Source: a virus | Direction: 5' to 3' (one strand) | DNA length: 64,000 nt | IMG/VR virus record: IMGVR_UViG_3300045988_160093 | Shown: piece by piece, positions 12,146 to 64,000 of the stretch | How the letters are laid out: each line of letters begins with the position of its first letter | Numbering within the stretch: the first letter of the stretch is position 1 | Notes under the pieces: model-generated | Told to the model about the DNA's origin: nothing | The model's input: only the letters and a program-made list of their open reading frames with translations | Databases searched by the model: none | Position numbers and translations under genes: made by a program

Positions 12146-12149
12146 AATC

Positions 12150-12625: not shown

Positions 12626-12636
12626 TTGTTTCGGTT

Positions 12637-12864: not shown

Positions 12865-12872
12865 ATTCTATT

Positions 12873-13713: not shown

Positions 13714-13727
13714 ACTATTCTTTTTTT

Positions 13728-14180: not shown

Positions 14181-14185
14181 AATGT

Positions 14186-14530: not shown

Positions 14531-14551
14531 AGTCAGTCTATCTATAAATTG

Positions 14552-27073: not shown

Positions 27074-27092
27074 AAACTCAAAACTAAATAAA

Positions 27093-27422: not shown

Positions 27423-27439
27423 CTTATAAAGTAAAGAAT

Positions 27440-48300: not shown

Positions 48301-51300
48301 CTACCTGCCGGAAGTGGTGGACGCACAGGAAGCGGCAATGCTGGGAGCACGGGAAGTGTGGGCAGAGGACGAGGACGAGGAAGCGGCAGCAGACCTTCTA
48401 AGTCAAATGGAAAGCGGAAGCCTGCAGCCAAGCAAGGAACTACTTTCCCGAATAGCAAAGGGCGAGATGTAAAGCAGGAGACAAAAGATGCGAAAGCGGC
48501 GATGTTGGCGGCTTTTGCAGAGTTCAACAAGAGGAACAAGAAGGACAAGAATATCCTTTCTTCATCCTTCCTGCTCGGTTTAGAAAAACATCTTCCAACA
48601 GCCGAAGCTCTCGAATATCTGCCAGACGTGATGAAAGCGACAGGCAGATACGGTGTTGCCCTTATCGGTGAAGGAATCTACAAGACAAAGGAATGGATAA
48701 AGAATGTACGTGAAGCAATCTTCGATGTAATGAAAGAAGGTGGTTTCTCAGATGCAGACATCGACGAGTATATCAGAGAGATGTGGCACATGCCTTGGGA
48801 GATGGATGGGGAAACCCACAAGATAGGCGAATGGGCAAGCATCAAGGGGTATGCTGGTCTTAGAGAGAGCCTGAAAGAACCTTTGCGTAAGAAGTTTGAC
48901 AAGCAGGTACTTGCGGAGCCGACGGAAGTAAAGGTGGGTGACAGAAAGAATATTGAAGAGACTTTGCCTTTCCTTCTACCTCAGCAGCAGGACGATGTGC
49001 TGAAAGCCGAAACACAGTTCTTTGATGAGAGCCATAAGGACAAAGCCCACGCCAACGGCAAAGGATATATGTTTACCAACGGTACTGGAACGGGTAAGAC
49101 GTACACAGGACTTGGCATCATCAAGAGAATGGTGAAGCAGGGCAAAGGAAGAATCCTTATCATTACTCCAAGCCAGCAGAAAGTAAAAGACTGGATAAAT
49201 GACGGAAAGAACCTTTGCCTTGACATCAGAGACCTTGATGATTGGGCAAACGAGCGAGGCAGCACTGCCACGAACGAGAAAGGCGATGGTGTTGTGATTA
49301 CAACCTTTGCTAATTTCGGCACGAACAAGAGGCTGCTTGAAGACCAATTCGATGCGATTGTCTATGACGAGAGCCATAGAATCATGGAGAATAAGAATGC
49401 CACCGAGACAGCACGAAGCAGACAACACTACATGCTCAGCAACAGGAACGAGAGTTACGCCTTGATGAGATTGGAGGAAATCAATCCTGACTGCATGAAG
49501 ATGCGTGGTCTTGCAGAAGACTTTGAGGATGCGCGAAAGAAAGAGGTAGAGCGAATACAAGCCGAATACCGAAAGGAGCATCCGTCAGAGAATGAGAAGG
49601 AGATGAGATTCCATACATCCAAGTCGCTGCCAAAGGACATCCATTCTTTTAGTATTTCAGACAAGGCGAAATTCCCCGAGCTTGGCAAGATATACGAAGA
49701 CTATATCAAGGCGAGAGACTATTATATTAATAATGTGAAGCCAAAACTGGAGAAGCAGGCAAAGGAATCCGTAGACAAAACAAAGGTGGTGTTCCTTTCC
49801 GCTACTCCGTTCAATACAAGAGAGAACATAGAGTATGCCGAAGGTTATCTCTTCTCATACCCAGAGAGAAATGAAATGGGGCAGAGCGGCAAGACGCAGT
49901 TCTTCCTTGAACATTTCGGTGCAGGATACAAATACCGCTATCACAGACTGGAGAGCAGTACATCAAATGCCGAAGCACTCGCCAAGCAGGAGATAGCTTT
50001 CAGTGACTGGTTGCAGAATGACTTGGGTACGATGAGCGGTAGGGTGATCGACAGTCCGTTTGACTATTCAAGAGATTTCCCTACGGTATCAGTAGAACAC
50101 GCTGACGAGTTCAATACAGCCTGCGAGGAGATTTCACGAGACAAGATATTCGGTGACGCATACAGGAAGGTGCTTGGTGACTACAATTATGGTAGCGCCC
50201 TGTTTGAGACAATGAAGGTGTCAGCCCTCCTACCGAGATTGAGAGAACACCTTGCAGCAGGTCGAAAGATAGTAATCTTCCATAGGCGAGTGACGAGCAA
50301 GGAACCATTGAAAGCCCCGTTCGGAATGATACTTGGCGAGCAGGCAGAGCAGACCATCAAAGCACTGCCGAAGGAAAAGCAGCCGGAAGCAAGAACCCGT
50401 CTGAACGAATTGAGGGACAGGTATTCGGGATTGCTTGAGTGGGAGAAGACCTTGGATTTCAGTATGCCGAGAGAACAGCTTGCAAAAGCTTTCGGAGAAG
50501 ACAACGTGTTGTATTTCAGCGGCAGCGAGAACAAGAAAGTGAAGAGTGAAGCCGTAAAGCAGTTCAACGACGACAACAGCGGCAAGAACATCATTGTGAT
50601 ACAGGAAGCGAGCGGTAAGGAAGGTATCTCCCTCCATGACACCACAGGCAAGCATCAGAGAGTATGTATCACTTTGGCTTTGCCTCAGAGTCCTATCACA
50701 GCCCTGCAGATAGAAGGAAGAACATACCGAATAGGCAACGAGAGCAATGCCATCTTTGAATATCCTGTACTTGGACTTACAAGCGAATACAACCTTTTTG
50801 CAAGCAAGTTCAACAGACAGGTGTCGACGACTGAGAACCTTGCCCTTGGTAGCCAGGCGAGAAACCTAAGAGACAGTTTCGCAAGAGGCATCGAGGAACA
50901 TAGCGGTGTTGTCCCCATTGACCAGCAGGGCGTGGGTGGCAAGGAGTTCGATAAAGGTGATGCCAACGAGAACGACCCGTTTGACAATGCAGTCCTTGAC
51001 TACTATACCAACCAAAGGTTGAACAAGAACAACCGAGAGGGAGTAGACTACTTCCCGACCCCCGAACCCCTTGGCTACAAGATGGTGGAATGGGCAAATA
51101 TTGGAGAGGGAGATTCGGTATTGGAGCCGAGTGCCGGTCATGGTGCGATAGCGAGATATGTTCCACAATCAAACGAGCTTGTGGCTATAGAGCCAAGCAT
51201 GAGCCTGTTTGCAAAGCTACAGATGAAAGCAGGAGGCTTGGGCAGGAAATTCCAGAACGAGACCTTTGAGGCATATCATATAAGCAACAAGCATGATACA

Positions 51301-54300
51301 ATCGTGATGAATCCACCATTCGGACACGCAGGAGCCACAGCGATAGCGCATATAGAAAAGGCGTTCGGACATTTGGAGGAAGGCGGACGTATGGTAGCCA
51401 TCATCCCGAGGGGTGCGATGGACAAGAAGTTCGACAAATGGTATGACAATGAGAAGACCGCGGCAATGCGAGCCGAGGTGGACCTTCCTGATATAGTATT
51501 CCAGCAGGCAGGAACATCGGTAAGATGCAGAGTGGTAGTCGTTGACAAGATAACCGACTCTAAACTCCGTGAGCAGGCGCATATGGAGAAGGCGGATTTG
51601 AGTGGTCATTACGACAAGATAGAAGATTTCTTCAACGACCTGCGAAATATAGAAGTCCCCGACAGGATCATCGATACCAACTTCAAGATGCAGAAGATGA
51701 GCAAGAGTGCAGTCAAGAGCTTGAAGGAAATCAGGGATGTATGGTCAGCAGATGTTGACAAGGACGGTGTGCACGTCAGGACAAGCAGCTGGATGGGTTA
51801 CGACATCAGCTTTACGGGTAGCGAAGACCCGAAGCGATGGAAGGACAAGATGGCGGCGACTTATGACAAGTACGCCCAGATGGAGAAGTCGGAATTGAGA
51901 GAAGGCAACAAAGCCGTGTTCGGTGAGTTGAAAGAGCTTGCATGCAAACTTGCAGGAATGACCGAAGACGAGATGAGAAGGTATCTCGTAAGCAAGGGGG
52001 CAGGTAGTGTAAAGTTCCGCAAGAACGACAATCTAACCCCCGAAGAGCGCCGGTCAGAGGAGCGCATGGAGGAACATCATGTCGAAGTTGCCAAGGCGGC
52101 GGAGAATCTGAATACGAAAGTTAACGTGTGTGTGGACATCAATGATGTGACGAATGCGGAGGCGAGATCAGCTATAGAAAGAGGTGAGAAAGTGAAAGCT
52201 TGGTACGATACCCGAACGGGAGAGGTGCACGTTTATCTTCCAAATGTCACAGACAAGTATGACGCACAGATGAGCGTAGCCCACGAGGTGGTAGCCCACA
52301 AGGGAATGAGAGGACTCCTTGGTGAGGAAGGCTATCGGAGTATGATGCGCAGAATGTACACACACCTTTCCAATGAGGAAGCGAAGGAGGTGAACGAGCG
52401 CATGATGAAGAACGGATGGGACTTCTATACAGCAATGGACGAGTGGGTGGCAGACAAGGCAGAGGAAAGCGTGTTCACACCAAAGTATGTAGTGATGAAA
52501 GACGGTCTGCACCGATACCCATTGGATAAGGTATTCCATATCGTGACGGAGGCTATGCACGATGTAGGGTATAGGATTAATCCGAACGTGGACGATGTGA
52601 AGTACTGGTTGTGGGCGAGCAAGAAGGGATTGAAGAACGGCGATGCCTACACGGAAATGAAGCGCAACTCGTTCTTGTGGCGACTGAACCACAATACATC
52701 GAATGACGGAATTGAGAACGGAGAGTTCGTGGAAACAGGCGGAGTCAGATTCAGTAATGGAAATAGTAAGTTGAATGGCGAAGATTCAGAAAAATTATTC
52801 GCATCTTTGCAAAACAAAAAAGGAAAGGAATATTATGACACAGTTACAGAAATCGCAAGAAGAGTTGTCGAACGAAGAAACGGCAAGGCAACAGTTCTTG
52901 AAGAATCCAATGGAAAATCGGAGAGTGATACTAATGAGAGCTTCTACGGAGGATTTAAAAGTGTTGCTCACTGCGCTGCTTCAATCATCACACATGACGT
53001 TGAAAGAAGCGTTTATGCAGATGTCGCGAACAGGGAAAATAAAAGCCGCGGGTCTGAATCCGCTGGAGAAGGCTTATATGCAAACATTGACAAGAATGTA
53101 CGGTCACAAGGACTTGGAGCAGAGAACAAGGAGGGGTTGGCTAACCGAGTCAACAGAGAAATTTTCAGCAGACTTAAAGACTGGGCTGAGCAAAACCACG
53201 CTTGGCTTGATAGACGAAATTTTGGAAAAAAATATCCAACTTCCAATAAAATAGGCGAAGGCGAGGAAGCAGAAGTATATTTATCAAAAGACGGTAAGAG
53301 CGTACTTAAAATCATTCATAATGATACTTATCTAAATCCTGTAGGAAGCAAACTTGATGAACTTGCATATGAGAATATAGCATTGGGTGATAACGAGCGT
53401 AAGGTTATCGGTTTCATGAAAGACCCGTATGCTTTCAATGATAATATGCTTATTCTTGTTGAACAGCCTTATGTTGAAGGCAAAACCGTTGATGAAATTT
53501 ACGGAGGAGACACTCCCGAAGCCTTGGCTTTTATAGACAAGGTTATGAAAGATAAAGGTTTTGAAGTCAAGGAAACCCCATTTAGCGAAGACTTGGATGA
53601 TTGGCTTGTGAAGACCTACTACAATAGAGATTTTACAATACGTGACGTAAACACGGGAAATGTAATTGTAGATAAAGACGGGAAACCACATGTCATTGAT
53701 GTTTATGCTTTTATTAATCACGGTGAATTTGAGAAGTATGGTGATAATAGTATTCCTGCTAATACTGCTAATTTTGAAATCGATTTCACCAAACCGACAA
53801 ATAAAAGTGCTGAAAGAAAAGTTAACTCACAAGCAAAGGGTAGTGGCAACATCCGTTTCCGTAAAGACGACAAGGCGAAGCATGAGTCAACCTTGTTCCG
53901 CAAACCCAGTCTTGACAGGAGCAAGAACGATACACCTCTGATGTCAGCGACAAAGGACTCCATCGACAAGGCACTCAACAATTGGAACGCACGAAGAATA
54001 GAATGTTGGACCGACGACAAGCACGGACTGAGAGTATTCCAACAGAAGCTTGCCGAAGGATTGACGAAAGGCATGAACGACAGTATGGACTCCTATCATG
54101 GAGCCATTAACCAAAGTTCCATTGTCAGAGAGAAACAATACCAGTTTGAGACGAGAGAGCTGAAAACGATGAACGATGCCGTGAAGGAATGTACCCGAAA
54201 GCTTGGCGGCGGTATGGAAGGATATGAAGAGCTGAATAAGTATGCCTACGTGAAGAGCGGTCTTGAAAGAAACAGAGTGTTGTTCGTGAGAGACGCAGCA

Positions 54301-57210
54301 GAGCAGGTAGACAAAAAAATCATGAAGCTCAACAAAGAAGCCCTCGACAAGGACCCACAGGCGACGACCCTCGCCAAGATGGGAGTTGAAGAGTTCAGAG
54401 ACGCATTCCATTCAGAAAAAAAGTTCCAGGAAACATTGCTCAATTCCGGCAAGATAAGCCTTGCAGAATACTACAAAGCCCTTGACGACTTCATAAAAGG
54501 TTTCAGTTTTCCACATACAGGTGACGCAGGAAAGAACGCCTTGATAGACAAGCTCAATGATTGGTATGCCGACAAGATAGGCGGCAAGTATGACGAGAAT
54601 GAGAATGACTATTCCGGAATAAGGAAATTCGACGACTTTGACAGTGACGCAGAAAGGATAGACTACGTGATGAATACGGAAGCCACTTTGGGCGAAGGGT
54701 CAAAGAACAAGTTGTGGCAAGGAATAGGCGGAGTGACACGTTTCGCCATAGACAACGACTATAATTATGGAGTGATAAGCAAGGATGTTCATAGCAGAGT
54801 CTCAAGTATGTTCAGTTGGTATATTCCTATGCGAGGATTCAAGGAAGACACGATGGAGGATATGTACGCTTATATGCACAATGAGATTTCCGATGGAGGC
54901 AATGTCAGTTCGGTAGTAAAGAGAGCCGACGGACGAACGACACTTGCCGACAGTCCGTTGGGAACGGCAGCAGCCCTTGCGGAGCGCAGTATCTCAAACG
55001 GCGAGGACAACCGCAACAAGCAGAGACTTTACAGACTCGTGAACCAGTGGCTGAAAGACCACACTACGACCAACGAGGACGGAAAGATAGAACTTACCGA
55101 AGAAGCCCCGGCAGTGATCAGTGAGGTGTGGTATAAGAAAGTCACCGACCATACGACAGGTGAAACATATTGGGAAGCCGTAATGCCGGATATAGACGGA
55201 GAGAAGGACCCCAAGCAGATACGCGCGAAAGTGGAACGCTTTGAAGAGAATATGCGCAATGCAGAGAAAAACGGCAACGCTACACGAACACTGCAGAAGG
55301 GAACGTTTGCCAAGCCATTCAAGGTGGCGAAACACAAGAACGAGCACGTTGTCTTTGTCAATGTAAACGGAAAGCAGAAGATGATAATCATGCAAGGCAA
55401 TCCACGTCCTGCACAGGCAATCAACGGAGATACGGCAAGCGATGTGACAGCAGGCAGGCTGATGAGAGGAATGAGTGCGATGTTCACATCATACAACATA
55501 ACGTTCAGTGTCACGAATACAAGCAGAGACACCTTCTTCGCCAACAACAACGTTGCAATCAGAGAAAATGCTGCATATTACGCTCGCTTCGTGAAGAACC
55601 AAGCCCTTATGGGAGGTTCTATGCTTCAAGGAACCGTTATGATGAACATGCCGAAGGTGAAAGGAATGTACTATCAGTTGTGGTCAGACTACAAAAAAGG
55701 CAAGAAGCTTACAGGCAAGTACGGTAAATATTTCGAGGAGTATATGAACAACGGCGGCAAGACAGGCTTCGTACAGACCAAGACGATAGAAGACTTGGAG
55801 AAACATATCAGAAATGAAGCTACGCAAAAGATGCTGTCAGCCTCGACGTTGGGCAAGGTAATGAGTAAGGTGCCCGAAGTGATAGAAGCCTTGAATGAAA
55901 GGTCAGAGAATATGAACCGCTTTGCTTGCTACGTGACAAGCAGGGAGATGGGAAGAAGCGTCATGCGCAGCGTTTCAGATGCGAAGGAGGTCAGCACGAA
56001 CTTCAACCGCAAGGGTTCAGGAAGCAAAGCCTTCAAAGGAACGAACGCAAAGGCATGGGAGAAATGGCAGGGATGGTTATATGATAGAGCCAAGAGCTAC
56101 TATCTCTTCTTCAATGCCGGAATGCAGGGCTTGTCTGTGCTGACCAACAACTTTGTGAGGCACAAGGTGAAGACCGCGGCCTTTGCAGTAGGAATCCCGA
56201 TATTGTTCGCGAGCAGTATAATACCGGCCCTCAACAGTTGGATAGCATCCTGCTTTGACGAGGACGACCAGTATGACAACCTTAGCGAGTGGGAGAGGAG
56301 AAACAATATCTGCATATACGCAGGACATTCCAACTGGGTAAAGGTGCCGTTGCCGATTGAGCTGAGAGCCTTCTACGGCTTTGGAGACATAGCGTTAGGT
56401 GTGACAAATCCAGCCTTCCGTTCAGAAAAAGGATTGTGGCTTGACATGCTGTCACAGGTGACGCAGATACTACCAGTTGACTTTATGGGAGAAGGCGGAG
56501 ATTTTTGGGGAGCTTTAATGCCAGATGTTGCCAAACCACTTTACCACGTTTGGGTTAACAGAGACTGGACCGGCAAGCCTATATACAAAGACTACGATTA
56601 TCTGAAATACGAGCCCGAATACCAAAAGGTGTTCCAGGGAGAAAACGAGTGGTTTGTATCGTTCAGCAAATTTATAAACGAGATGAGCGGCGGTAACGAG
56701 CACGTGAAAGGTTCTCTTGACGGAAAATGGAACAACCCTGCAATATGGGGTGAAATCATCACCGGATATGGAGGCGGTGCATTGTCGGATGCCATACGTA
56801 CAGGAAAGCTGGCAACGAGAGTAGCCACATGGAATTGGGAAGATTTCTCCACAAGAGAAGTACCGATGGTAAGAGCCTTGTACAGTTCGGCAACCGAGAA
56901 AACAAAATACTACAGGTCGCTCAGCAAGTATGCCCATTATAAGGAAGATGCCGACAAATACCTGCATGACTTCAAGGCAAATCTGAAAAGCGACAATCCG
57001 TTGTATGTGATGAAGGCAATCAGCGATATGAAGCGAGAGTCGCCGGAGTTCGTGAGGATGGCGAAAATCCACGGGTTTGAGAAGAGTATCAAGGACCTAA
57101 AGAAAATCGCCAACAACGAGAAGATTCCGAAGAAAGCCCGCGATGAGGCAAAAGAGCTCATCAACCAAGAGAAAGTAAAACTCGTGAAAGAATTTGAAAG
57201 TGACGAATAG
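42358..57210 (+). CDS. giant (4950 aa) polyvalent multidomain protein, probable packaged/ejected anti-defence cargo
   Basis: Uninterrupted 14.85-kb ORF with ATG start; multiple enzymatic motifs (see the domain entries). Confidence 0.85.
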   Translation: MADKITQVYNAYKADGATRAQSEQQFRNWMYGDNYRRGVWNDLRKQGAQVGTFEHFTEALGYKMNPKVKSKVAKQAIQYGAPKVPDNWGQMDMGRTFANDEMEQQLETQRNNQASSNAKKTGSNEPIAQRVKEKLNRTHLKEASKSGTIMNPLTGEPINNVPTYREKKEGKYWNPITETDMGDAVLDWSTTDANGDKVAQTQTKQNFEADAAAKAIANELTKTADYKGKWAKFDSEFEKHHGLVYHPAEYEENKKYREEGFDDNSKMLYEKYAPKLEDVSALLGSKNAKEAIVAAASKLGITPDDFLNRYVVPATEKANEEEYHKRGIEHFMPKNAWENMKANFAVSSLGNAANKSLVPEEYQNMRNEAVETYSDANSKTLDEKGVFSKEGIQALGRNISGGTARVMPDAVGFVIAGAEAKGVVKGLEIGWKALRGTGLVTKVLGKAVPKTLTSLTKKYGAQTAGRILNAVNNESIGSFIQANARQFAQGSLTMGIFEANNYLATEGREKIKEGKWGEFAEGLYTSGMSGLGTGMLFSGIGTVTGALGRNLGVTGRETTRLEKLKHGTEKALFSASALFVEGLGFRAEDLYDEAKKGELTFGSVLENGGKGVIDKITMDLGMAAGKGKRPSLKQMVVGAVANTNPHVKFSAVEKNELMKSTGGKSLFEALDGIAEGKNVSPVYRTKMSEFFNDPNISRRTKQKVAYVVGKTIDTNMPRTERVSISQGTSGTQEVRTYSKDGELLTVDVYKNAEAAEVAKQEIYAKRDKNDFIALWVDSLKPTQSENNTALENTAKELGYDDVGVFLADWDEAQKSSDADFLSKVSKTINENIGKIVADRHKQMLDAKRAINEEYDVDIDKVLDKNPVMWKDKEREAVKELGSRLKKGFSDKNDEAHNNAIARQDGADLSEQTELEDSEKVIESSQAVNERLDSAVEAWRKMQEENPDLAEWMKNNPDSTVEELRENFGDYVADAYMELSNAKAMRDGFIQNTGEKIEDAVKNQVEQAKFTGTMQNKEGSKVVTDNSVTVFADKDGNEYTLVGGDVIVDSAGDGSYSAGKSGLVIFRDKDGNLIQRTNFDGLNEVGTFSLEDYANRIRTTLQEQKTAEIQSTETPLPESQNKETPKEELPSEAPKSEEPKEEDFIRNSNSEEKLSSEKDEWGNPLIKASDGSVDFGEISEGYGLQAAPIRLSLGENKKNPETGKDEGYGLLHIEARHGDQIRKAGFNSIEEFVESIARDYTEIREGVQIGTTQTYLIVKKDGHANTLYIELSRDGKYWNVNSAGIFKEKYVNRKNEIKPEPTVGSSTSTDTTGVNHGLNEGATVTSGNSPMISDSKDTTKSSDLQEGNETLTFKNTEAAKEESNYEKNDIPMDNEGEPVYEQVPKERTAQDLFDKLGDGNVAHNYAQIRIEGAEKELKEAKKKEPKIGTKINEYLKKKQEYEDRVKAAEDKVAYWESVKEEIEKLTHTTPEELKEAQEELDGTAAREEYKKTVGETQPADGVSLAAEFVVDARITPESFRKETGLSAADQRTFVGMIAGAEKGGKSIERLGEELVEYDNAYYGGAYFHGDSNDARSAIISALMSAKSRKGLREMAQPDMEREVRERARMRDEAYHERYGMDYEEYLSYSEQEMPHILGKLNNFDEQKYLQDKAEEITNQINKEHGKTDRENDSSREESVHGAGDKVLPEERIDDRGRGESPKEHGGREKAERRGNTEDAPLHETPSGGEVEKGERKEEKPSDPSDAAEGMRGAAEQFHEERVEKARKAYEEAKASGDVSETKRTKDEYRKALDDKLKAQGIGLIERRKTIAKEMGEEPKVEKPKGEGPKVGEKQWEDMTPTERAEKADADPLTEDEIRSDEDNKELAAAAIAYLNGDKSLLNQIAYLKIYGNVRSRHEDVPGNSGTEDTSQLAATDNGGGEGMELESGRGSGGTAEPMDRGAGGETAPGKQESGETGKGNADTPAGEGSHIEGEGGAPGLGGLPAGSGGRTGSGNAGSTGSVGRGRGRGSGSRPSKSNGKRKPAAKQGTTFPNSKGRDVKQETKDAKAAMLAAFAEFNKRNKKDKNILSSSFLLGLEKHLPTAEALEYLPDVMKATGRYGVALIGEGIYKTKEWIKNVREAIFDVMKEGGFSDADIDEYIREMWHMPWEMDGETHKIGEWASIKGYAGLRESLKEPLRKKFDKQVLAEPTEVKVGDRKNIEETLPFLLPQQQDDVLKAETQFFDESHKDKAHANGKGYMFTNGTGTGKTYTGLGIIKRMVKQGKGRILIITPSQQKVKDWINDGKNLCLDIRDLDDWANERGSTATNEKGDGVVITTFANFGTNKRLLEDQFDAIVYDESHRIMENKNATETARSRQHYMLSNRNESYALMRLEEINPDCMKMRGLAEDFEDARKKEVERIQAEYRKEHPSENEKEMRFHTSKSLPKDIHSFSISDKAKFPELGKIYEDYIKARDYYINNVKPKLEKQAKESVDKTKVVFLSATPFNTRENIEYAEGYLFSYPERNEMGQSGKTQFFLEHFGAGYKYRYHRLESSTSNAEALAKQEIAFSDWLQNDLGTMSGRVIDSPFDYSRDFPTVSVEHADEFNTACEEISRDKIFGDAYRKVLGDYNYGSALFETMKVSALLPRLREHLAAGRKIVIFHRRVTSKEPLKAPFGMILGEQAEQTIKALPKEKQPEARTRLNELRDRYSGLLEWEKTLDFSMPREQLAKAFGEDNVLYFSGSENKKVKSEAVKQFNDDNSGKNIIVIQEASGKEGISLHDTTGKHQRVCITLALPQSPITALQIEGRTYRIGNESNAIFEYPVLGLTSEYNLFASKFNRQVSTTENLALGSQARNLRDSFARGIEEHSGVVPIDQQGVGGKEFDKGDANENDPFDNAVLDYYTNQRLNKNNREGVDYFPTPEPLGYKMVEWANIGEGDSVLEPSAGHGAIARYVPQSNELVAIEPSMSLFAKLQMKAGGLGRKFQNETFEAYHISNKHDTIVMNPPFGHAGATAIAHIEKAFGHLEEGGRMVAIIPRGAMDKKFDKWYDNEKTAAMRAEVDLPDIVFQQAGTSVRCRVVVVDKITDSKLREQAHMEKADLSGHYDKIEDFFNDLRNIEVPDRIIDTNFKMQKMSKSAVKSLKEIRDVWSADVDKDGVHVRTSSWMGYDISFTGSEDPKRWKDKMAATYDKYAQMEKSELREGNKAVFGELKELACKLAGMTEDEMRRYLVSKGAGSVKFRKNDNLTPEERRSEERMEEHHVEVAKAAENLNTKVNVCVDINDVTNAEARSAIERGEKVKAWYDTRTGEVHVYLPNVTDKYDAQMSVAHEVVAHKGMRGLLGEEGYRSMMRRMYTHLSNEEAKEVNERMMKNGWDFYTAMDEWVADKAEESVFTPKYVVMKDGLHRYPLDKVFHIVTEAMHDVGYRINPNVDDVKYWLWASKKGLKNGDAYTEMKRNSFLWRLNHNTSNDGIENGEFVETGGVRFSNGNSKLNGEDSEKLFASLQNKKGKEYYDTVTEIARRVVERRNGKATVLEESNGKSESDTNESFYGGFKSVAHCAASIITHDVERSVYADVANRENKSRGSESAGEGLYANIDKNVRSQGLGAENKEGLANRVNREIFSRLKDWAEQNHAWLDRRNFGKKYPTSNKIGEGEEAEVYLSKDGKSVLKIIHNDTYLNPVGSKLDELAYENIALGDNERKVIGFMKDPYAFNDNMLILVEQPYVEGKTVDEIYGGDTPEALAFIDKVMKDKGFEVKETPFSEDLDDWLVKTYYNRDFTIRDVNTGNVIVDKDGKPHVIDVYAFINHGEFEKYGDNSIPANTANFEIDFTKPTNKSAERKVNSQAKGSGNIRFRKDDKAKHESTLFRKPSLDRSKNDTPLMSATKDSIDKALNNWNARRIECWTDDKHGLRVFQQKLAEGLTKGMNDSMDSYHGAINQSSIVREKQYQFETRELKTMNDAVKECTRKLGGGMEGYEELNKYAYVKSGLERNRVLFVRDAAEQVDKKIMKLNKEALDKDPQATTLAKMGVEEFRDAFHSEKKFQETLLNSGKISLAEYYKALDDFIKGFSFPHTGDAGKNALIDKLNDWYADKIGGKYDENENDYSGIRKFDDFDSDAERIDYVMNTEATLGEGSKNKLWQGIGGVTRFAIDNDYNYGVISKDVHSRVSSMFSWYIPMRGFKEDTMEDMYAYMHNEISDGGNVSSVVKRADGRTTLADSPLGTAAALAERSISNGEDNRNKQRLYRLVNQWLKDHTTTNEDGKIELTEEAPAVISEVWYKKVTDHTTGETYWEAVMPDIDGEKDPKQIRAKVERFEENMRNAEKNGNATRTLQKGTFAKPFKVAKHKNEHVVFVNVNGKQKMIIMQGNPRPAQAINGDTASDVTAGRLMRGMSAMFTSYNITFSVTNTSRDTFFANNNVAIRENAAYYARFVKNQALMGGSMLQGTVMMNMPKVKGMYYQLWSDYKKGKKLTGKYGKYFEEYMNNGGKTGFVQTKTIEDLEKHIRNEATQKMLSASTLGKVMSKVPEVIEALNERSENMNRFACYVTSREMGRSVMRSVSDAKEVSTNFNRKGSGSKAFKGTNAKAWEKWQGWLYDRAKSYYLFFNAGMQGLSVLTNNFVRHKVKTAAFAVGIPILFASSIIPALNSWIASCFDEDDQYDNLSEWERRNNICIYAGHSNWVKVPLPIELRAFYGFGDIALGVTNPAFRSEKGLWLDMLSQVTQILPVDFMGEGGDFWGALMPDVAKPLYHVWVNRDWTGKPIYKDYDYLKYEPEYQKVFQGENEWFVSFSKFINEMSGGNEHVKGSLDGKWNNPAIWGEIITGYGGGALSDAIRTGKLATRVATWNWEDFSTREVPMVRALYSSATEKTKYYRSLSKYAHYKEDADKYLHDFKANLKSDNPLYVMKAISDMKRESPEFVRMAKIHGFEKSIKDLKKIANNEKIPKKARDEAKELINQEKVKLVKEFESDE
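43550..44290 (+). other. glycine-rich hydrophobic region of the giant protein
   Basis: GFVIAGAEAKGVVKG ... SGMSGLGTGMLFSGIGTVTGALG ... MVVGAVAN. Confidence 0.4.
45835..46224 (+). other. compact His/Arg motif module, possibly a BECR-type (barnase/EndoU/colicin-like) RNase domain
   Basis: GYGLLHIEARHGDQIRKAGF (aa 1206-1225) within a roughly 130-aa globular-looking block; the assignment is from memory of polyvalent-protein domains. Confidence 0.3.
48106..48440 (+). other. G/S/E/R low-complexity (RGG-like) linker
   Basis: GGGEGMELESGRGSGG...GSVGRGRGRGSGSRPSKSNGKRKP. Confidence 0.7.
48960..50780 (+). other. superfamily-2 (SNF2/DEAD-like) helicase domain
   Basis: GTGTGKT at nt 49081 (aa 2242-2248), DESH at nt 49366 (aa 2337-2340), QIEGRTYRIG at nt 50707 (aa 2784-). 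Confidence 0.8.
51040..51560 (+). other. N6-adenine DNA methyltransferase domain
   Basis: YFPTPEPL, VLEPSAGHGAI (nt 51118, motif I), NPPF (nt 51310-51321, motif IV). Confidence 0.8.
52150..52460 (+). other. zincin-like metallopeptidase motif region
   Basis: HEVVAH (HExxH) at nt 52282-52299 (aa 3309-3314). Confidence 0.5.
53200..53760 (+). other. protein-kinase-like fold
   Basis: IGEGEEAEVY (aa 3632-3641), K3651 in VLKIIH, RDVNTGN (D3763, N3768), VIDV (D3781, 18 residues after D3763). Confidence 0.55.
56166..56255 (+). other. hydrophobic (TM-like) helix in the C-terminal region
   Basis: VKTAAFAVGIPILFASSIIPALNSWIASCF. Confidence 0.45.
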
Positions 57211-57257: not shown

Positions 57258-57884
57258 TTAAGGGAACGGGTGCATCCCCTTGCGCAGCCTGCCCGGTTTG
57301 TAGCTCAAGAGAGCGTTGTGGATTTCCTCTAAAGACAATTCCATCTGCTGCTCCTTTGATGCAGTGACAGGGTCCTTTGCGGTAAGGTACAACAAAAGGT
57401 ATTCATACAAGCATCCGTTTACGATGTAGTCGTGGATAGCATCCGTCAAAGGAGTCAAGGCGTTTTCGTTCCACCAATCGCCCACCGACATTGCGATGTC
57501 AATCTCTTCGTTGTCCCTTATCCTGTCAGACGCAGCAGGAATATCCTCCTGCTTCAATACCGAAGCGAGTTTCCTTTTGGCAAGAGAAAGATATTTGTTG
57601 AACCATCTTTGCAAGAGAGGACCAACGGCATCCGTGTTCTCGATATTGTTGTCCTGCAAGCCCTTCTCGTTGCGCCTACTACGGGTGATGATACTCAGTT
57701 CGGCTTCAACATCATAGATAAGCTGGGGGCGCATAATATAAATATGGTATTCCCTTTTCTGTTTGCCACATACATTAGCCCTGCCGGTCATGCGATTGCA
57801 GTCACATTCCAGTTCAGAGGAAATGGCATATCTCTCAACGGCATCACATTGAGGATTGTTCGGGTCGTGATAAATGTTACTCAT
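57258..57884 (-). CDS. hypothetical head/neck-associated protein
   Basis: Last gene of the portal-terminase operon; ATGA overlap upstream. Confidence 0.5.
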   Translation of the reverse strand: MSNIYHDPNNPQCDAVERYAISSELECDCNRMTGRANVCGKQKREYHIYIMRPQLIYDVEAELSIITRSRRNEKGLQDNNIENTDAVGPLLQRWFNKYLSLAKRKLASVLKQEDIPAASDRIRDNEEIDIAMSVGDWWNENALTPLTDAIHDYIVNGCLYEYLLLYLTAKDPVTASKEQQMELSLEEIHNALLSYKPGRLRKGMHPFP

Positions 57885-58339
57885 AAGAATTTCAGTTTTA
57901 GTAAATGATACACACTATACATTATTATATATCCAAGGAAGAGAGAATATATATGGATGAAGAAGTTAACCCCAGGCAGCAGTCCGATCAGAACGGCAAA
58001 CGGGAGAATCCTCCTGCACATAGGATAAAAACCTGCAGAGTAAGCCCACGTTGCACCGATATGCGCAAACAGGACCGCAGACAATCCCATAGTGGCAGTA
58101 TCACCCATAGGAAGAAAAGAAGCAGCCACAGCAGCAATGTAAGCCACAATGCCAACATTCTTTCTGAATGACAACAGGGCAACCAAATTGGCAAGCAAGT
58201 GAAAGACGTTCGCATGGGAAAACGGATAGAAGAAATGAGATACACCATATTCATTCCATACGAACGAACATCTGTACCCAAGCAGGAACGCCAAGAAAAC
58301 GGCAACCGCTATAGAAGCGTTAGTCAAGTTAAATTTCAT
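57881..58339 (-). CDS. minimal six-TM rhomboid-like intramembrane serine protease
   Basis: FSHANVFHLLANL (compare GlpG FSHASLMHILFNL), GLSAVLFAHIG (compare GLSGVVYALMG, catalytic Ser), IHIYSLFLG (compare AHIAGLAVG, catalytic His). Confidence 0.7.
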   Translation of the reverse strand: MKFNLTNASIAVAVFLAFLLGYRCSFVWNEYGVSHFFYPFSHANVFHLLANLVALLSFRKNVGIVAYIAAVAASFLPMGDTATMGLSAVLFAHIGATWAYSAGFYPMCRRILPFAVLIGLLPGVNFFIHIYSLFLGYIIMYSVYHLLKLKFL

Positions 58340-59097
58340 TCTTCAACAATTATGGTTACGAGATTCTTTACAATCGGGTCGTGTCGGGAATATAGCTGCA
58401 AGGTAGCCATACCGCTTTCCCTTCCAAAGACAGAGAAGGAATTGTCATTATGAGACGCGACCTGCATGATGGCGAGATTGAGAGAAGTCGCTTCAATATC
58501 ATTGGTAGCATCTTCATCAATAGAGTAAGAGATAACAGCCGTCTCGCCTTTTTTTACCTTTACGGCAGCATCCGGTACATGGATAGCTGTAGTGTAAGGA
58601 TATTTCGGAGCCATCGGCGGTGTACGGTCGAAGCACTTTAGAATCGGAGTCAGGATGCGCTCAGACATTTCAGAATAGTCAGCAGCCCTCTTCGGGTTGA
58701 TTGGAGCCCACCACAACATCAGCATCTTCTTTATTATGAAATCAGAGCCAAGACGGGCAAGAGTATCTTTATTGGCATTGTTGAATCTGTCAGAAACCTC
58801 CATCCTGTATTTCACGGCAGCACTGTCCGACAAGTCAAGGAAAACCGCATTGTCAGCAGCAGTCAGATATTTCTGCGTAGCAAAGTCAGACATAAACGTT
58901 TTCAGTTCCTCAGCCGCCGTGAGCATATCCCTTTGGAGTTTCCTCTCCTTGTATTCATCATCACCAGCCTGCTCGTGATATGCAAGTCTTGTAGCCTTTT
59001 CATCAGCCGCCCTGTCAGAATTGGAAGTGATGAGCGTTTCAGACTTGACCGCATCCAAAATCGTGGAGCGTAAAAGAATAAGTTGTATAGTCTTCAT
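58336..59097 (-). CDS. structural protein with a C-terminal Ig-like (Big_2-like) domain
   Basis: The C-terminal ~85 aa shows a beta-rich pattern (VKVKKGETAVISYSID...ATLQLYS...VTIIV). Confidence 0.5.
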   Translation of the reverse strand: MKTIQLILLRSTILDAVKSETLITSNSDRAADEKATRLAYHEQAGDDEYKERKLQRDMLTAAEELKTFMSDFATQKYLTAADNAVFLDLSDSAAVKYRMEVSDRFNNANKDTLARLGSDFIIKKMLMLWWAPINPKRAADYSEMSERILTPILKCFDRTPPMAPKYPYTTAIHVPDAAVKVKKGETAVISYSIDEDATNDIEATSLNLAIMQVASHNDNSFSVFGRESGMATLQLYSRHDPIVKNLVTIIVEE

Positions 59098-59108
59098 ATA
59101 GTATGTAT

Positions 59109-59579
59109 TTATGATATTTCACCTGTAGTCTCGTCAAGAGGCGAAGAAGAAGTCACCACCTTGGACCTGTTGAAAACAGAGTTGCGGATATTGGAAAGCA
59201 AGACATCACACTCCGTAATATATTTCTTAGCCAGTTCAGAACCCGTCATAGACAAGTACTGAGCAAGACAATACGCACGAGCATAACTTGACACAAGGTC
59301 GTTATACATCTCCGTAAGGTCGTCAGTAATACCATTGTTGACTGAAATGAGAATCTCATCCCCATCCTTATGATAATTGTTTATACACTCAGGAGCGATG
59401 GCGACAACCGATAGAACGGCATCCTTGGCAAGTCCCGTTATCAGTCCTTTCTCCCTTGACGAGAGGGCGAACGTAGTATAAGTCGGTTCGCCACCTTCGT
59501 TCTTAATCCTCTTGCTGATCATCGCCAGCTGGTCCTGCACATTGTCAAAGACCGAAGAAATGTCAATTTTTATTCTCAT
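59109..59579 (-). CDS. hypothetical head-associated protein
   Basis: ATG start; downstream of the terminase. Confidence 0.5.
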   Translation of the reverse strand: MRIKIDISSVFDNVQDQLAMISKRIKNEGGEPTYTTFALSSREKGLITGLAKDAVLSVVAIAPECINNYHKDGDEILISVNNGITDDLTEMYNDLVSSYARAYCLAQYLSMTGSELAKKYITECDVLLSNIRNSVFNRSKVVTSSSPLDETTGEIS

Positions 59580-59591: not shown

Positions 59592-61718
59592 TTAAATAGA
59601 AGCCTCGGTAACACCTTCCCTTTCCTTTACCCTCTTCTGCATAACCTTCCAAGTCGGGCGCTCCATATCATAGAGAGAAACCCACAAGGCAATGGCAGTA
59701 GACATAACGACATCATCATGGTTGTCCCTGCCGACGATATTACCCATAGAACCATCCTCTCTGCGCTCGTAAATCCTCAACTCCTGGTAGCAAGTCTCGT
59801 CAGGCTCGTTCCATAGCTTATCATCAACGGCAGCAATGAGATTGTCGATAATCTGGACCTTGGTCAGTTTGTTGGTCTGGAATCCGAATTTCATCACAAT
59901 CTTGTCAGCGACCTCTTCCGACCCCGTAGAACGCTGATACAAGTTTTCATAGAAGTCAGCTATCTCCTCGATGAGAGTAGCGAAGTGGTCACCCTCGGTA
60001 TTGGAGTTACGCTCCCTGTCGGCAGTGTTGGACTCAATGACAAGCAGGGCATTGTCGTAGAAGTGTGCCAATGCAGCAGCCTTCCAAGCAAGCAAATCAT
60101 GACGGCAGTGTCCCCTCCATCGGGCAACGACCTGCGGGATGCCACCCTTCATTTCCGGCATCAGTCCCTTGCGGTCGATAACCGTCATTACCGTATAGTC
60201 AGAACCTTGGCTCTTGCCACCAATATCCACCGCAACGACATACCTGTTCTTGATGTTCAGAATGTTGTTGTTAGGCAAGTTCCATATCTTCAAGTCTCCA
60301 TCCTCGCAAAAGTCAATCTGAGCTTTAAGATAGAAGCTCTTGCTTTTCTTCATGCCATAAGGCAGACGGATGTCAGCCCTGTAAAGCGGTTCACGCAAGT
60401 ATCTCTCTTTGAGTTCGTCAATAGCGTACTGATCGAAGACAAGGTTACCGCTGTTTCGGAAAGCCTCTACCGGGTCAACGGGAGCCTCCGTCGCCATATA
60501 AGCGTGGTTCTTGAATTTGTTTCTCGTATGCCGATACCAGTTGATAGCCTGAAAGCAAGCCCCCAGTTTCCACATACGCCAGAAGAACCTTCCCGATTCA
60601 CGGAAACCTTTAGGCTTTGCCTGACTATCCTTGTTGACGAGAAGCCATCGTGCAAACTCATACCTGTTATCCACCTTCTCCATATCGTGTTCGATGTGGA
60701 AGAACGGAACAAAGATAAACTTGTAGGCATCGTTGTTGTCGGGATTCATGGCGCTTTGGCATTTGTCGTAGAAGAATCCCGACATACCACGACCTGTAGA
60801 CTCAAAAATCTCAATGTTGTCAGGAATACGCAAGATACTACCCGACACAGAAGACAATACAGCTTCCGGGTCATGCTCGTCAGACTGCTTCCAATAAGCC
60901 ACCTCAGAGTAGTGGGCGCAATGAAAGTTAGAACCGCGAACATTATCATAGTTGTCAAAAGACGCAACCGTGATAGTAGAAGTACGCACAGGCTTTCTTC
61001 CGTCAGTCACAACGAAGTCGTCGGTAGAACCCTCATACGGAGACATCTGCAGCTGTCTTCCAGGCAGACCGATGGTCCATCCTTTCTGCTTCTCGATAGC
61101 CTTGCGGTACATCGCCTTAATCTTCTTTGATGTAGCCTTCACCTGAGAGAGGACAATAGAGTTCCATCCGTCGGGGTGTCTGAAATCCTGCATCCATTTG
61201 ATGTAAAGCTGCGAAAGTGTGGAGCCACCCCATTGCCTCGCCTTCAAGATGATGACAAATATAGGTTGGTTGGATTTTCTCAGAGACTCGAAAAGTGCCA
61301 GCAGTCTGCGTTGAGGATAGTTCAATCTGAACGGAACCATCATACCCGTAGTCTTGTCCTCGATTTTATCGGTGAGATAGAGAGCGAACTCCGGGTCCTC
61401 ACGCATACGAGCCTTACATATTTCAAAAGACACCGCCGTAGATAGTTGTTCAGAATAATCCTTTCCCCACACATCAGTGATATATTTCTGAATAGAACCG
61501 ACGCTGACAACATCTTTCAGTACCCTGTTCAGAAGACACTCCTTCGGTACATACATAAGAGGATAAATCATATCAGGAATCTCTATCCTCACCCTGTTCT
61601 CGAAGTCGTAGCATCCCCTTCCTGTCACAGGGTCATATTCACCGAAGATTTCCTTCATCCTCTCATCATCTTCGGCAATCAGTTCCTCTATTTTCTTCTC
61701 AAGTTCCTCTTCCGTCAT
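59592..61718 (-). CDS. terL: terminase large subunit
   Basis: ILKARQWGGSTL (Walker A-like), HCAHYSEVAYW (Walker B/catalytic Glu), FESTGRG, nuclease-domain YVVAVDIGG...LLVIESN...HDDVVMS; ATG at 61718 preferred over the TTG at 61724. Confidence 0.85.
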   Translation of the reverse strand: MTEEELEKKIEELIAEDDERMKEIFGEYDPVTGRGCYDFENRVRIEIPDMIYPLMYVPKECLLNRVLKDVVSVGSIQKYITDVWGKDYSEQLSTAVSFEICKARMREDPEFALYLTDKIEDKTTGMMVPFRLNYPQRRLLALFESLRKSNQPIFVIILKARQWGGSTLSQLYIKWMQDFRHPDGWNSIVLSQVKATSKKIKAMYRKAIEKQKGWTIGLPGRQLQMSPYEGSTDDFVVTDGRKPVRTSTITVASFDNYDNVRGSNFHCAHYSEVAYWKQSDEHDPEAVLSSVSGSILRIPDNIEIFESTGRGMSGFFYDKCQSAMNPDNNDAYKFIFVPFFHIEHDMEKVDNRYEFARWLLVNKDSQAKPKGFRESGRFFWRMWKLGACFQAINWYRHTRNKFKNHAYMATEAPVDPVEAFRNSGNLVFDQYAIDELKERYLREPLYRADIRLPYGMKKSKSFYLKAQIDFCEDGDLKIWNLPNNNILNIKNRYVVAVDIGGKSQGSDYTVMTVIDRKGLMPEMKGGIPQVVARWRGHCRHDLLAWKAAALAHFYDNALLVIESNTADRERNSNTEGDHFATLIEEIADFYENLYQRSTGSEEVADKIVMKFGFQTNKLTKVQIIDNLIAAVDDKLWNEPDETCYQELRIYERREDGSMGNIVGRDNHDDVVMSTAIALWVSLYDMERPTWKVMQKRVKEREGVTEASI

Positions 61719-61720
61719 AT

Positions 61721-63685
61721 TCAACCTTGTTTAAGCATTTGTTGAGCGTTCTGCACATTCTGCTCAGACATCATCTGCTGCTGCGGCGACATCTGCTGCT
61801 GTTGCATTGCGAGCTGCTGTTGCATAGCCGCCTGAGCCTCGGCAGACTGAACCTGCTGCAAGAGCATATCCTTGAACGGCAGATTGATACACTGTAGATA
61901 CTGAGAGATGTTGATTGCGCCAAGCTGGAGCAACTGCAATGCTGTATCATTAATCTGTGACTGATAAGCGACAGAAGCCGTGCTCTCCTTGATAGAAATC
62001 TTGAACATCACATCACGAGCCGAAAGCCGGTCATATTCAATGATGCTTGTATTATCCTTGTTCATAATCGGTCTTCCGTTGTCGTAATATTGCTTGATGT
62101 TAGACACCTTCTTCTTGGCAAGTTTCTCCGTAAACACCGTCATGTCAGAAAGCAGAGAATAAAGAGAAGTCGTAGCGTTCTGCTGCTCCATCGCATAACG
62201 AGAAAACGAAGTGCCGGCAGAAGGAGTCTTGCCCTGCAAAGCGCCGCTCACATTTGTAATCTCCTTTGTAAGGTTGAGCTGCATCTGCAACAACTCCGTA
62301 GTGCCAATCTGTACTGCATTAGATGTAATAATCTCCGGTCTCGCATTCGGGTTAAGACGGGAAGTCTCATAGAAGATGATGCCGTCATACTCGGTAAATT
62401 CATCCGCAAAATCCTGTGGCGTCATATCGTCAGGAATACAACCCTTTGGGACGATAGTGATACCCTTTGCAGAAGAACGAGCCGCCATATCGTGCATTAC
62501 AATAAGACGATTGATATACCTCTGCTGATCGATGATGTTAGACATGAACGGATGCACCTCACCATTAACGAACGGGTAAAGTTTAAGCGTGAACGGATGC
62601 GCATTGTATTCATAGGGACATTCACCTTCACATAAGATAGTTCCGTCGGGAGCAAGAAAAGAGTAATACCAGAACACATCTTCAATCGGGCTTGTCGTTA
62701 TGTAAGCCCTCTGTTCCTTCGGTACACCCACCTTGTCATAAGCCTCCTTCCTCTTTCTGTTAATCTCCTTTATACGGGGAAGGTCTTTCAATTCAATCCT
62801 GAACCTTGCATCGTCAGCGTTCCCTGCTATAGGGTCTTCACACTGTAATCTCTGTTTGGACTCCTTTGTCCACACCTCGATAACCCTGCGGCAACTCCTG
62901 TCGGCAGACGAAAAGAAATTGATATTGGAGAGATTTCCGCCGTCATTCTGCTGCAAGTCAGAAGTCTCGTCATAGCAGTCACCCATATTGAAAATGCGGT
63001 CGATGTCCTCAATCGTCCATCCCAATTCAGGTTTTGCGAATTTTGAATACAATTCAGGGCGAGAGCAGTCATGAAGGAGACCAATGGTAGTAACGTCCTG
63101 GTGACGGGGATCAGTGCCCCCATCCCAGAACGCCATGTTCGGGTTACAATAGTCCGTCCATGTATCATAGACTCCATCACGCTCCTCGTAACATTCCCGA
63201 CAAAGAGCGACGCCGCCAGTGAGATAATCCCGGAAAACGGTAGAGAGTACATCCGGCATGAAGGTGTCCTGCCAGTTAGCCTGCAGTGTAGCCGACATCA
63301 TATCCGAAAGCCATTGGGAATCATGGGTACGAGCAAAGCAGACAGGTTCGGTAGCCTGTTTTTCATACATACCAGCAAGAGTGGAGAAGACAGAAATCAT
63401 GATATTGTTCGTAAGAGGGACATTACCCTTCTTTTTCAGATACTCCCTTTCTGTGATATATCCACATTTGTAGTAAATCACATCACCCCATTGGTCACCG
63501 AAAGTATAATTGTTTGTCCTTTCCCTGACCTCTCTGAGTTTTCTCTTGTTCTCCCAAAGTTGGTTGCAACGTGCGACAAGGTTGTAATCCCTCTTGCCGC
63601 AGGAAACGGTCCGCTTCCTTCGAATAGACGTTGCCTTGCCCTTGTCGGACACATCATTAAGAGTATATAAACGTTTAAGTGGCAT
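61721..63685 (-). CDS. portal protein candidate
   Basis: About 654 aa directly upstream of terL with a Q-rich C-terminus; ATG at 63685 preferred over the GTG at 63703; -7 box TATTTTTG on the minus strand at 63703-63710. Confidence 0.6.
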   Translation of the reverse strand: MPLKRLYTLNDVSDKGKATSIRRKRTVSCGKRDYNLVARCNQLWENKRKLREVRERTNNYTFGDQWGDVIYYKCGYITEREYLKKKGNVPLTNNIMISVFSTLAGMYEKQATEPVCFARTHDSQWLSDMMSATLQANWQDTFMPDVLSTVFRDYLTGGVALCRECYEERDGVYDTWTDYCNPNMAFWDGGTDPRHQDVTTIGLLHDCSRPELYSKFAKPELGWTIEDIDRIFNMGDCYDETSDLQQNDGGNLSNINFFSSADRSCRRVIEVWTKESKQRLQCEDPIAGNADDARFRIELKDLPRIKEINRKRKEAYDKVGVPKEQRAYITTSPIEDVFWYYSFLAPDGTILCEGECPYEYNAHPFTLKLYPFVNGEVHPFMSNIIDQQRYINRLIVMHDMAARSSAKGITIVPKGCIPDDMTPQDFADEFTEYDGIIFYETSRLNPNARPEIITSNAVQIGTTELLQMQLNLTKEITNVSGALQGKTPSAGTSFSRYAMEQQNATTSLYSLLSDMTVFTEKLAKKKVSNIKQYYDNGRPIMNKDNTSIIEYDRLSARDVMFKISIKESTASVAYQSQINDTALQLLQLGAINISQYLQCINLPFKDMLLQQVQSAEAQAAMQQQLAMQQQQMSPQQQMMSEQNVQNAQQMLKQG

Positions 63686-63839
63686 ACGAAAAACTTTTTT
63701 CACAAAAATACAAATATGCGGATTGTGTTTTTCCGAACCCGCACATCGTCAGCGGTGTGAACGAGAACCAAGGAGAAAAATAATCAAGACATATCATAGC
63801 AGTTTCGGCGAGAACGGAAATAACGGGTAGTAAAAGACT

Positions 63840-63870: not shown

Positions 63871-64000
63871 ATGAGCGCTAAGGATAACAAAGAAGAAATA
63901 ATCGAGGAGCAGCAGGTGCAAGAACCAGCACCAGAGCCTACCCCAAACAGGGACGCCTACAAAGCCTCCTTTGGAGAAGACTATCCCGATGTGGACTTTG
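63871..64000 (+). CDS. 5' end of an acidic protein (scaffold-like?), truncated by the window end
   Basis: MSAKDNKEEIIEEQQVQEPAPEPTPNRDAYKASFGEDYPDVDF; divergent from the portal gene. Confidence 0.4.
   Translation, partial: MSAKDNKEEIIEEQQVQEPAPEPTPNRDAYKASFGEDYPDVDF

Follow-up and report, generated by a model that had tools for sequence, protein, structure and literature searches.

A minimal rhomboid-like protease in the head/packaging module of Bacteroidales phages co-occurs with an N-terminally anchored major capsid protein

Relation to described rhomboid systems

GlpG of Escherichia coli and Haemophilus influenzae (MEROPS S54, PF01694) is the described rhomboid that gives the best profile and fold match to a 152-residue protein encoded in the IMG/VR virus record IMGVR_UViG_3300045988_160093, of which a stretch of 64,000 nucleotides (hereafter, the window) was analysed. 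Like GlpG, this protein is predicted to have a core of six transmembrane (TM) helices with both termini in the cytoplasm (N-in/C-in), an HxxxxHxxxN motif in TM2, a GxS motif in TM4, a His in TM6 and a Gly seven residues after this His. The phage protein, which we call the mini-rhomboid, differs from GlpG in being approximately 30 residues shorter than the GlpG core, with no cytoplasmic N-domain, in its shortened L1 loop, where the WR motif is not conserved, and in being encoded by a phage, within a head/packaging operon. Comparing the related loci that could be evaluated, we found the rhomboid in exactly those whose major capsid protein (MCP) bears an N-terminal hydrophobic segment (hereafter, the anchor) with a conserved Ala-terminated motif.

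In Providencia stuartii, the AarA substrate TatA has an N-out orientation and keeps its TM helix after the cut. The cut that we propose here would instead remove the helix, falling at the C-terminal end of a hydrophobic segment that is N-in. The two systems would be alike in that a rhomboid matures a specific partner; a passage of PMC3712462 describes how TatA is matured by the removal of a short N-terminal piece next to its TM helix.

The rhombosortase/GlyGly-CTERM system (TIGR03902) offers a second likeness, in that a small rhomboid there serves one sorting signal that occurs together with it. A GG just before the proposed cut region is present in many capsid anchors, and the only NCBIfam similarity of the family is to this model. 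The succession of basic cluster, helix and GG in the capsid anchor resembles a mirror image of the layout of the GlyGly-CTERM signal. Nevertheless, the window protein gave no match to TIGR03902 and its relatives reached only 13-17 bits against a cut-off of 84; additionally, the capsid signal is N-terminal, with the opposite chain direction, and the GG is not universal among the anchors.

Prohead proteases, such as HK97 gp4, T4 gp21 and the ClpP-like enzymes, are soluble and are packaged within the procapsid. The mini-rhomboid would share with them the removal of an N-terminal MCP segment and a place among the head genes; in fold and location it is unrelated, being an integral membrane rhomboid, so that only the proposed role is alike.

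Among phages, rhomboid-like genes are already known, as automatic annotations only. Those of the same family include the 'Protein glpG-like' of Podoviridae sp. ctzXp5 in UniProt (TM-score of 0.80, 27% identity), gp59 of phage BF1-TP2, annotated as 'rhomboid family intramembrane serine protease', and a 'rhomboid domain-containing protein' of phage BS-TP4, whereas the 'rhomboid membrane protein' of the Stenotrophomonas phages DLP3 and DLP5 is encoded outside the head module. In the literature, we found no functional study of a viral rhomboid; full-text searches in which rhomboid was paired with phage, terminase or capsid returned only the DLP reports and unrelated papers. The paper describing the Bacteroides phage isolates does not mention the rhomboid gene, and a 2025 review of the rhomboid superfamily mentions neither phages nor viruses. 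As a protein, the mini-rhomboid adds an unusually small new member to a known family; its constant position among the head genes and its association with the anchored MCP appear to be undescribed so far.

Family membership, fold and predicted topology

The original prediction had described, from the DNA letters, a six-TM open reading frame (ORF) of 152 residues with three GlpG-like signature motifs and ATGA overlaps with both flanking genes. The ORF is present as described, with six TM helices in the structural model presented below; both overlaps are real (Table 1), and the three motifs were borne out codon by codon. Residues 40-52 read FSHANVFHLLANL, with H42, H47 and N51 encoded at positions 58214-58216, 58199-58201 and 58187-58189, respectively. 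Residues 85-88 are GLSA, aligned to GLSG of GlpG, and H129 lies within the sequence IHIYSLFLG (residues 128-136).

Taken alone, the window protein matched the Pfam Rhomboid profile with an E-value of 6e-4 and 20.5 bits, below the gathering cut-off of 22.6 bits, with residues 35-140 aligned to positions 7-137 of the 143 in the profile. Its 12 close homologues are all metagenomic. When 1.84 billion cluster representatives were searched by profile, the family grew to 293 relatives (E ≤ 1e-3), and of the 150 that scored best nearly all are 140-175 residues long. From this search, we built a family alignment of 129 homologues, most of them sharing only 23-35% identity with the window protein; individually, 107 of the 129 matched the Pfam profile at E ≤ 0.01 (best, 8.9e-16). 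H47, G85 and the putative catalytic S87 are invariant in this alignment, while H42, N51 and the putative catalytic H129 are each kept in 128 of the 129 sequences; the selection of the sequences by profile favours the motifs, yet does not force complete conservation. The conservation of Ser and His among homologues, on which the original prediction depended, is thus as it had supposed. Two further conserved residues are specific to the family, Asn44 (kept in 120/129) and Pro122. Concerning the TM6 packing motif, G136, at position His+7, is conserved in 106/129 sequences, and position His+3 is Ser in the window protein. In contrast, the positions aligned with the L1-loop WR motif of canonical rhomboids, a motif that is common in these proteins and not catalytic, are not conserved, the nearest conserved residue being H35 (80/129).

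When the 129-sequence profile was compared with the PDB, it recovered the GlpG crystal structures over all six helices with an E-value of 4e-11, the next chains being unrelated ones with E > 0.3. Aligned by hhalign to the E. coli GlpG core (probability of 92%, E-value of 7e-7), residues H42, H47, N51, G85-S87 and H129 were paired with H145, H150, N154, G199-S201 and H254 of GlpG; the GlpG sequence used in this alignment agrees with the PDB GlpG chains aligned by the profile. AlphaFold2, run with the same 129 sequences, produced a model with a mean predicted local distance difference test score (pLDDT) of 96.2 and a predicted TM-score (pTM) of 0.90, in which helices span residues 5-19, 34-40, 45-57, 64-73, 87-101, 104-119 and 126-151, i.e., six TM helices and a short L1 helix. 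Only the 129-sequence alignment gave both the GlpG match and the good model: a search of the PDB with the single sequence returned only spurious monobody matches, an 11-sequence profile missed GlpG, and the AlphaFold2 model obtained with 11 sequences was poor (pLDDT of 54). A Foldseek search of the PDB with the 129-sequence model gave GlpG or iRhom structures as the top 31 matches (probability of 1.0, query-normalised TM-scores of 0.52-0.68), the next match having an E-value of at least 4. No family for the mini-rhomboid was found in PHROGs v4, and megablast and tblastn searches of INPHARED returned no close phage.

Counts of Lys and Arg amount to 9.8 on the side of the N-terminus, L2, L4 and the C-terminus and to 1.1 on the side of L1, L3 and L5, with the same sign in all 129 sequences. 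This bias points to an N-in/C-in topology with the active site facing the periplasm, like GlpG. The predicted fold and topology are thus compatible with those of rhomboids.

The resemblance of these sequences to rhomboids is far beyond chance. An inactive protein, i.e., a derlin- or iRhom-like pseudoprotease, or a chance hydrophobic look-alike, might be suspected because the window protein scores under the Pfam gathering threshold and the canonical WR motif of L1 is not conserved. Nevertheless, the Ser, both His and the Asn are kept in 128 or 129 of 129 sequences that are mostly only 23-35% identical to the window protein, and both the profile and the fold searches point to GlpG specifically, so that we consider this explanation extremely improbable. 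Based on homology, the structural model and conservation, the mini-rhomboid is very probably an active intramembrane serine protease belonging to the rhomboid family, with a complete catalytic set.

The capsid anchor and the candidate substrates of the rhomboid

Among the families of conserved neighbours, hydrophobic or TM segments are always present only in the rhomboid and the MCP, and were found in 65% of the partial sequences of a giant polyvalent protein encoded nearby. The local family f52, found beside the rhomboid in some loci, was discarded as a partner, being a Q/P/N-rich protein and no anchored capsid protein. The MCP of the cultivated phage BKO1-TP3 belongs to the Pfam family SU10_MCP (E-value of 2.9e-30).

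Grouping the anchored MCPs at 85% identity gave 34 clusters, and the layout of the anchor is the same in all of them: two to four basic residues, a hydrophobic stretch of approximately 12-15 residues, a stretch rich in Gly, Ser and Thr, and the motif x-(M/F/L/T)-A (hereafter, x-M-A). The Ala of this motif is invariant in the 34 clusters and the preceding residue is Met in 29 and Phe, Leu or Thr in five. A linker of 40-77 residues rich in Gly, Asp, Ala and Thr follows, and then the capsid fold. The motif is kept even though the rest of the MCP is just 20-30% identical between subgroups. The n-region carries a charge of +2 to +4, and the 20 residues past the Ala have a net charge of -2 to -6. 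We considered whether translation might truly begin at the Met of the motif, in which case the anchor would be an artefact of ORF calling. This was judged unlikely because the upstream frame remains open, hydrophobic and in frame through indels in 34 diverged clusters, because the Met is replaced by Leu, Phe or Thr in five clusters and because approximately 37% of codon differences are synonymous.

Loci for the comparison of rhomboid and anchor were collected independently of the rhomboid, via the MCP or the portal, a related portal being present in at least 559 viral contigs. Anchored MCPs, scored with a hydrophobicity threshold that was adjusted by eye for three obvious anchors, were found in 134 loci; 129 of these carry the rhomboid and five could not be evaluated (four truncated loci and the rearranged L169). 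Among 92 loci with an anchor-less MCP, none carries the rhomboid. The comparison in evaluable loci is therefore 129/129 against 0/92, where the totals count a few contigs twice (e.g., L227 and L248). Included in the 92 are 80 loci, down to 63% identity, from a further scan with the anchor-less MCPs, with neither anchor nor rhomboid in any of them. Only close relatives were listed when distant MCP homologues were sought by profile, which provided no negative control; the portal-based scan served as the control. The anchor-less MCPs start straight with the linker (MDGETVQVGG..., MATEQTVQQ...), at about the position of x-M-A in the anchored ones.

The synteny of the anchor-less clade is otherwise the same as that of the anchored loci. 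In L186, the order is portal (>), f38 (<), TerL (large terminase subunit, <), rhomboid (<), f1 (<), scaffold (>) and anchored MCP, while in L227 it is portal (>), TerL (<), f1 (<), scaffold (>) and an MCP with no TM segment, with TerL (12024-14153) overlapping f1 (14092-14541). A neighbour-joining tree recovers the anchor-less clade as monophyletic and places it within the anchored ones. In this clade, a 58-65-residue ORF between the scaffold and MCP genes (L227:15467-15640; also L213, L234 and L238) duplicates the Gly/Thr/Ala-rich N-terminal linker of the following MCP. L169 has an anchored MCP and no rhomboid in the locus, and it was treated as non-evaluable because TerL is also outside the locus. 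Its module is rearranged: a holin-like gene with four TM segments and a T4-lysozyme-like endolysin gene (L169:13854-14956) occupy the slot after the p208 gene, replacing the rhomboid and TerL.

Based on this comparison, we give about an even chance to the reading in which the rhomboid removes the MCP anchor and frees the MCP from the membrane. Homology, model and conservation place the rhomboid itself in the inner membrane of the host, its two termini cytoplasmic and the Ser87/His129 site open toward the periplasmic leaflet. The MCP would be made with its N-terminal basic, hydrophobic and Gly/Ser-rich segment, ending in x-(M>F/L/T)-A and followed by the acidic flexible linker; a cut at or near x-M-A would free it from the membrane for head assembly, the rhomboid standing in for a soluble prohead protease. 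The N-in export asymmetry of the anchor charges would place x-M-A at the periplasmic face, on the same side as the active site. The wider proposition, namely that this gut phage lineage makes a membrane-tethered, signal-peptide-like MCP precursor that its own rhomboid releases for head assembly, with no soluble prohead protease, is advanced tentatively, at slightly less than an even chance.

Several points weigh against anchor removal by the rhomboid. The link to MCP processing is purely comparative, and because the anchor-less loci form one clade, the co-variation represents a single co-loss or co-gain event, not many independent ones; additionally, this clade was inspected over approximately 20-27 kb per contig, and a rhomboid gene elsewhere is possible. 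The window itself ends before the MCP gene, so that its anchor is deduced from close relatives, including L243, which has 92% DNA identity across the aligned portal/scaffold junction and continues into an MCP starting with MRRMRKFFESKTMAAQLLLIVLAVVTGGIGMA followed by AGAVIG. In syntenic relatives, the anchored MCP gene begins approximately 25 nucleotides past the stop of the scaffold-like gene, which in the window is divergent from the portal gene. Regarding topology, the charge pattern of the anchor is that of an N-in export signal, i.e., of a substrate of type II, unlike the canonical substrates of rhomboids, which are of type I or III. Taken at face value, an export signal is predicted to put the capsid fold outside the cell, although the MCP must stay in the cytoplasm; a candidate way round this problem would be a stalled loop insertion, with the long acidic linker threading back across the membrane and slipping back into the cytoplasm once cut. 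Finally, the motif meets the published rhomboid preference for P4, P1 and P2' at P4 and P1 only, and it also suits host signal peptidase I, since Ala occupies -1 and the residues at -3 are mostly small or aliphatic.

The last point opens another explanation, in which host signal peptidase I cuts at x-M-A and the phage rhomboid clears leftover anchor peptides or stalled precursors from the membrane or the translocon. The rhomboid would then act like a signal-peptide peptidase or a quality-control protease, with hundreds of anchor peptides to clear per capsid, and the rhomboid/anchor co-variation would also be expected. The -1/-3 rule is obeyed in most clusters, the n-, h- and c-regions have the classic architecture, and quality control of orphan membrane proteins is documented for bacterial rhomboids, with GlpG acting on orphan subunits according to a passage of PMC7232013. 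Because of the fit of the motif, this two-step model is a serious rival. Nevertheless, some clusters have Tyr or Met at -3, and signal peptidase I disfavours bulky or aromatic residues at this position; the near-invariant Met at -2 corresponds to no requirement of this enzyme, and full Sec export of the MCP would be lethal to the phage, so that some phage-specific factor must hold the MCP in the cytoplasm. On these grounds, we regard the two-step model as unlikely.

The original prediction had looked for substrates among other membrane proteins of the phage, namely the giant protein, lysis proteins (holin, spanin) and the product of positions 27-791 (+). The giant protein has one hydrophobic segment (Table 1) and is a conserved neighbour in 10 of the 30 rhomboid clusters described below, and several small TM ORFs lie at 26.6-28.2 kb of the window. 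Nevertheless, the segment of the giant protein is retained in the rhomboid-less clade (L241), i.e., it does not co-vary with the rhomboid, and the giant protein was therefore rejected as a co-varying substrate; the candidate lysis ORFs are approximately 30 kb away with no conserved linkage, and beyond the MCP and the giant protein, no conserved neighbour family has TM segments. A substrate among these other phage proteins is, in our estimation, quite improbable. The rhomboid interpretation of the original prediction thus stands in fold, conservation and operon position, while the best candidate substrate is now the MCP anchor, encoded just past the window end. The ORFs at 26648-28206 (+) are four consecutive ones of 141, 133, 159 and 103 residues, with two or three predicted TM segments each, and may be a lysis or membrane cassette. 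The 27-791 product is an Asn/Gln/Gly-rich protein of 254 residues with a short hydrophobic stretch, WMYLIFLALFGG, and without an x-M-A-type motif.

Genomic context, spread of the family and significance

The window operon comprises, in order, portal, TerL, p156, p253, rhomboid and p208, all on the minus strand and convergent with the gene of the giant protein (Table 1). The upstream ATGA overlap is also present in L243. The original prediction was correct in placing the gene in a portal-terminase operon with overlapping neighbours, but its labelling of the flanking genes as structural is not justified, because p156, p253 and p208 are mutual paralogues of one PHROG (phrog_19255) for which no Pfam or PDB match was found: the p208 and p253 family profiles gave none in the PDB, and the small neighbours gave none in Pfam. 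In related phages, two to four copies of phrog_19255 paralogues lie between portal and TerL. Homologues of the giant protein contain ResIII helicase, Kinase-PolyVal, ddrB-ParB and LPD38 domains.

Table 1. Features of the window considered in this study (coordinates in nucleotides of the 64,000-nucleotide stretch; aa, amino acids)
Feature	Position	Strand	Basis
Giant polyvalent (DarB-like) protein of 4950 aa, with one hydrophobic segment (aa 4604-4622)	42358..57210	+	ORF; homologues
p208, conserved neighbour, phrog_19255-like	57258..57884	-	PHROG E-value 4e-9; no PDB match
ATGA overlap, rhomboid stop/start of downstream 208-aa gene	57881..57884	-	Sequence (+ strand TCAT)
Mini-rhomboid gene, 152 aa, ATG start, six predicted TM helices, N-in/C-in	57881..58339	-	ORF, Pfam, profile, AlphaFold2, Foldseek
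H129, putative catalytic His in TM6 (GlpG H254)	57953..57955	-	Conservation, alignment to AHIAG of GlpG
G85-L86-S87, putative catalytic Ser, start of TM4 (GlpG G199-L200-S201)	58079..58087	-	Invariance, alignment
TM2 motif H42-x4-H47-x3-N51 (GlpG H145/H150/N154)	58187..58216	-	Sequence, conservation, hhalign register
ATGA overlap, stop of upstream 253-aa gene/rhomboid start	58336..58339	-	Sequence (+ strand TCAT)
p253, paralogue of p156 and p208, phrog_19255-like	58336..59097	-	PHROG
p156, paralogue, phrog_19255-like	59109..59579	-	PHROG
Large terminase subunit (TerL)	59592..61724	-	PHROG terminase match; clusters with TerL of related phages
Portal, P22-like	61721..63703	-	Pfam P22_portal E-value 1.6e-33; phrog_156 E-value 2.8e-62
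Start of scaffold-like gene, cut by window end	63871..64000	+	Translation matches L001 scaffold-like protein

Gene order is kept in relatives whose rhomboids are 52-60% identical to that of the window. Among isolates, three temperate phages of Bacteroides come nearest, BKO1-TP3, BS-TP4 and BF1-TP2, whose portals show about 34-37% identity; further relatives occur in metagenome bins of Prevotella and Bacteroides. When IMG/VR was scanned for the back-translated motif HANIFHLxxN, 103 stretches were obtained; pooled with the other loci collected, they bring those carrying a family member to 100 loci plus the window, which fall into 30 clusters at 70% identity. TerL lies no more than 9 kb from the rhomboid in 22 of the 30 clusters; within this distance, the corresponding numbers are 15 for the p253/p156 family, 15 for p208, 14 for the portal and 10 for the giant protein. 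Fifteen clusters have the rhomboid gene directly upstream of TerL and on its strand, usually preceded by the gene of a 135-190-residue protein (phrog_27246). These recurrent neighbours indicate that the rhomboid has kept its place in the head/packaging module despite several rearrangements. As judged from gene content and order, the mini-rhomboid is a core late gene of this module in a large Bacteroidales phage lineage with an SU10-type capsid and a P22-type portal. When the proteins of the module were compared with Pfam and PHROG, no other protease was recognisable.

This distribution also bears on whether the rhomboid cleaves host envelope proteins, in the course of takeover, superinfection exclusion or the inactivation of receptors or defences, its link to the anchor being a coincidence of one ancestry event. 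Such a role would agree with the fact that the co-variation is one event, with the DLP3 and DLP5 rhomboid genes of Stenotrophomonas phages, which lie among moron-like, not head, genes, and with the known bacterial rhomboids, which act on cellular membrane proteins (AarA on TatA, in a passage of PMC3712462; GlpG, in a passage of PMC7232013). Nevertheless, the gene stays in the head/packaging operon across 30 diverged clusters and several rearrangements, it overlaps TerL or genes of the structural module, and it was cleanly excised along with the loss of the anchor. We therefore give a host-envelope role a low probability and maintain the MCP anchor as the preferred substrate.

From a practical point of view, PHROGs v4 lacks the family, and genes next to it probably bear wrong annotations in GenBank. 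BKO1-TP3 gp51 (L003:11587-13701) and BF1-TP2 gp60 (L109:7936-9963), annotated as 'tail spike proteins', match PHROG terminase families and cluster with the window TerL, and these annotations are likely erroneous. BKO1-TP3 gp50 (L003:13694-14212), annotated as 'glycoside hydrolase', is a rhomboid (family hidden Markov model E-value of 7e-32).

Substrates are known for few bacterial rhomboids. If the MCP anchor is cut as proposed, the mini-rhomboid would be, as far as we found in the literature, the first viral rhomboid with a defined substrate, and the two proteins would constitute a natural pair of enzyme and substrate, with the rhomboid cutting a segment of N-in (type II-like) orientation. 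With a compact rhomboid of approximately 150 residues, a genetically linked and highly expressed candidate substrate, and the cultivable phages BKO1-TP3, BS-TP4 and BF1-TP2, the substrate question is directly testable. Head assembly in these phages would begin at the membrane and depend on intramembrane proteolysis, a membrane-anchored route of capsid maturation for which we know of no precedent, and this would account for the missing recognisable prohead protease in these abundant gut phages.

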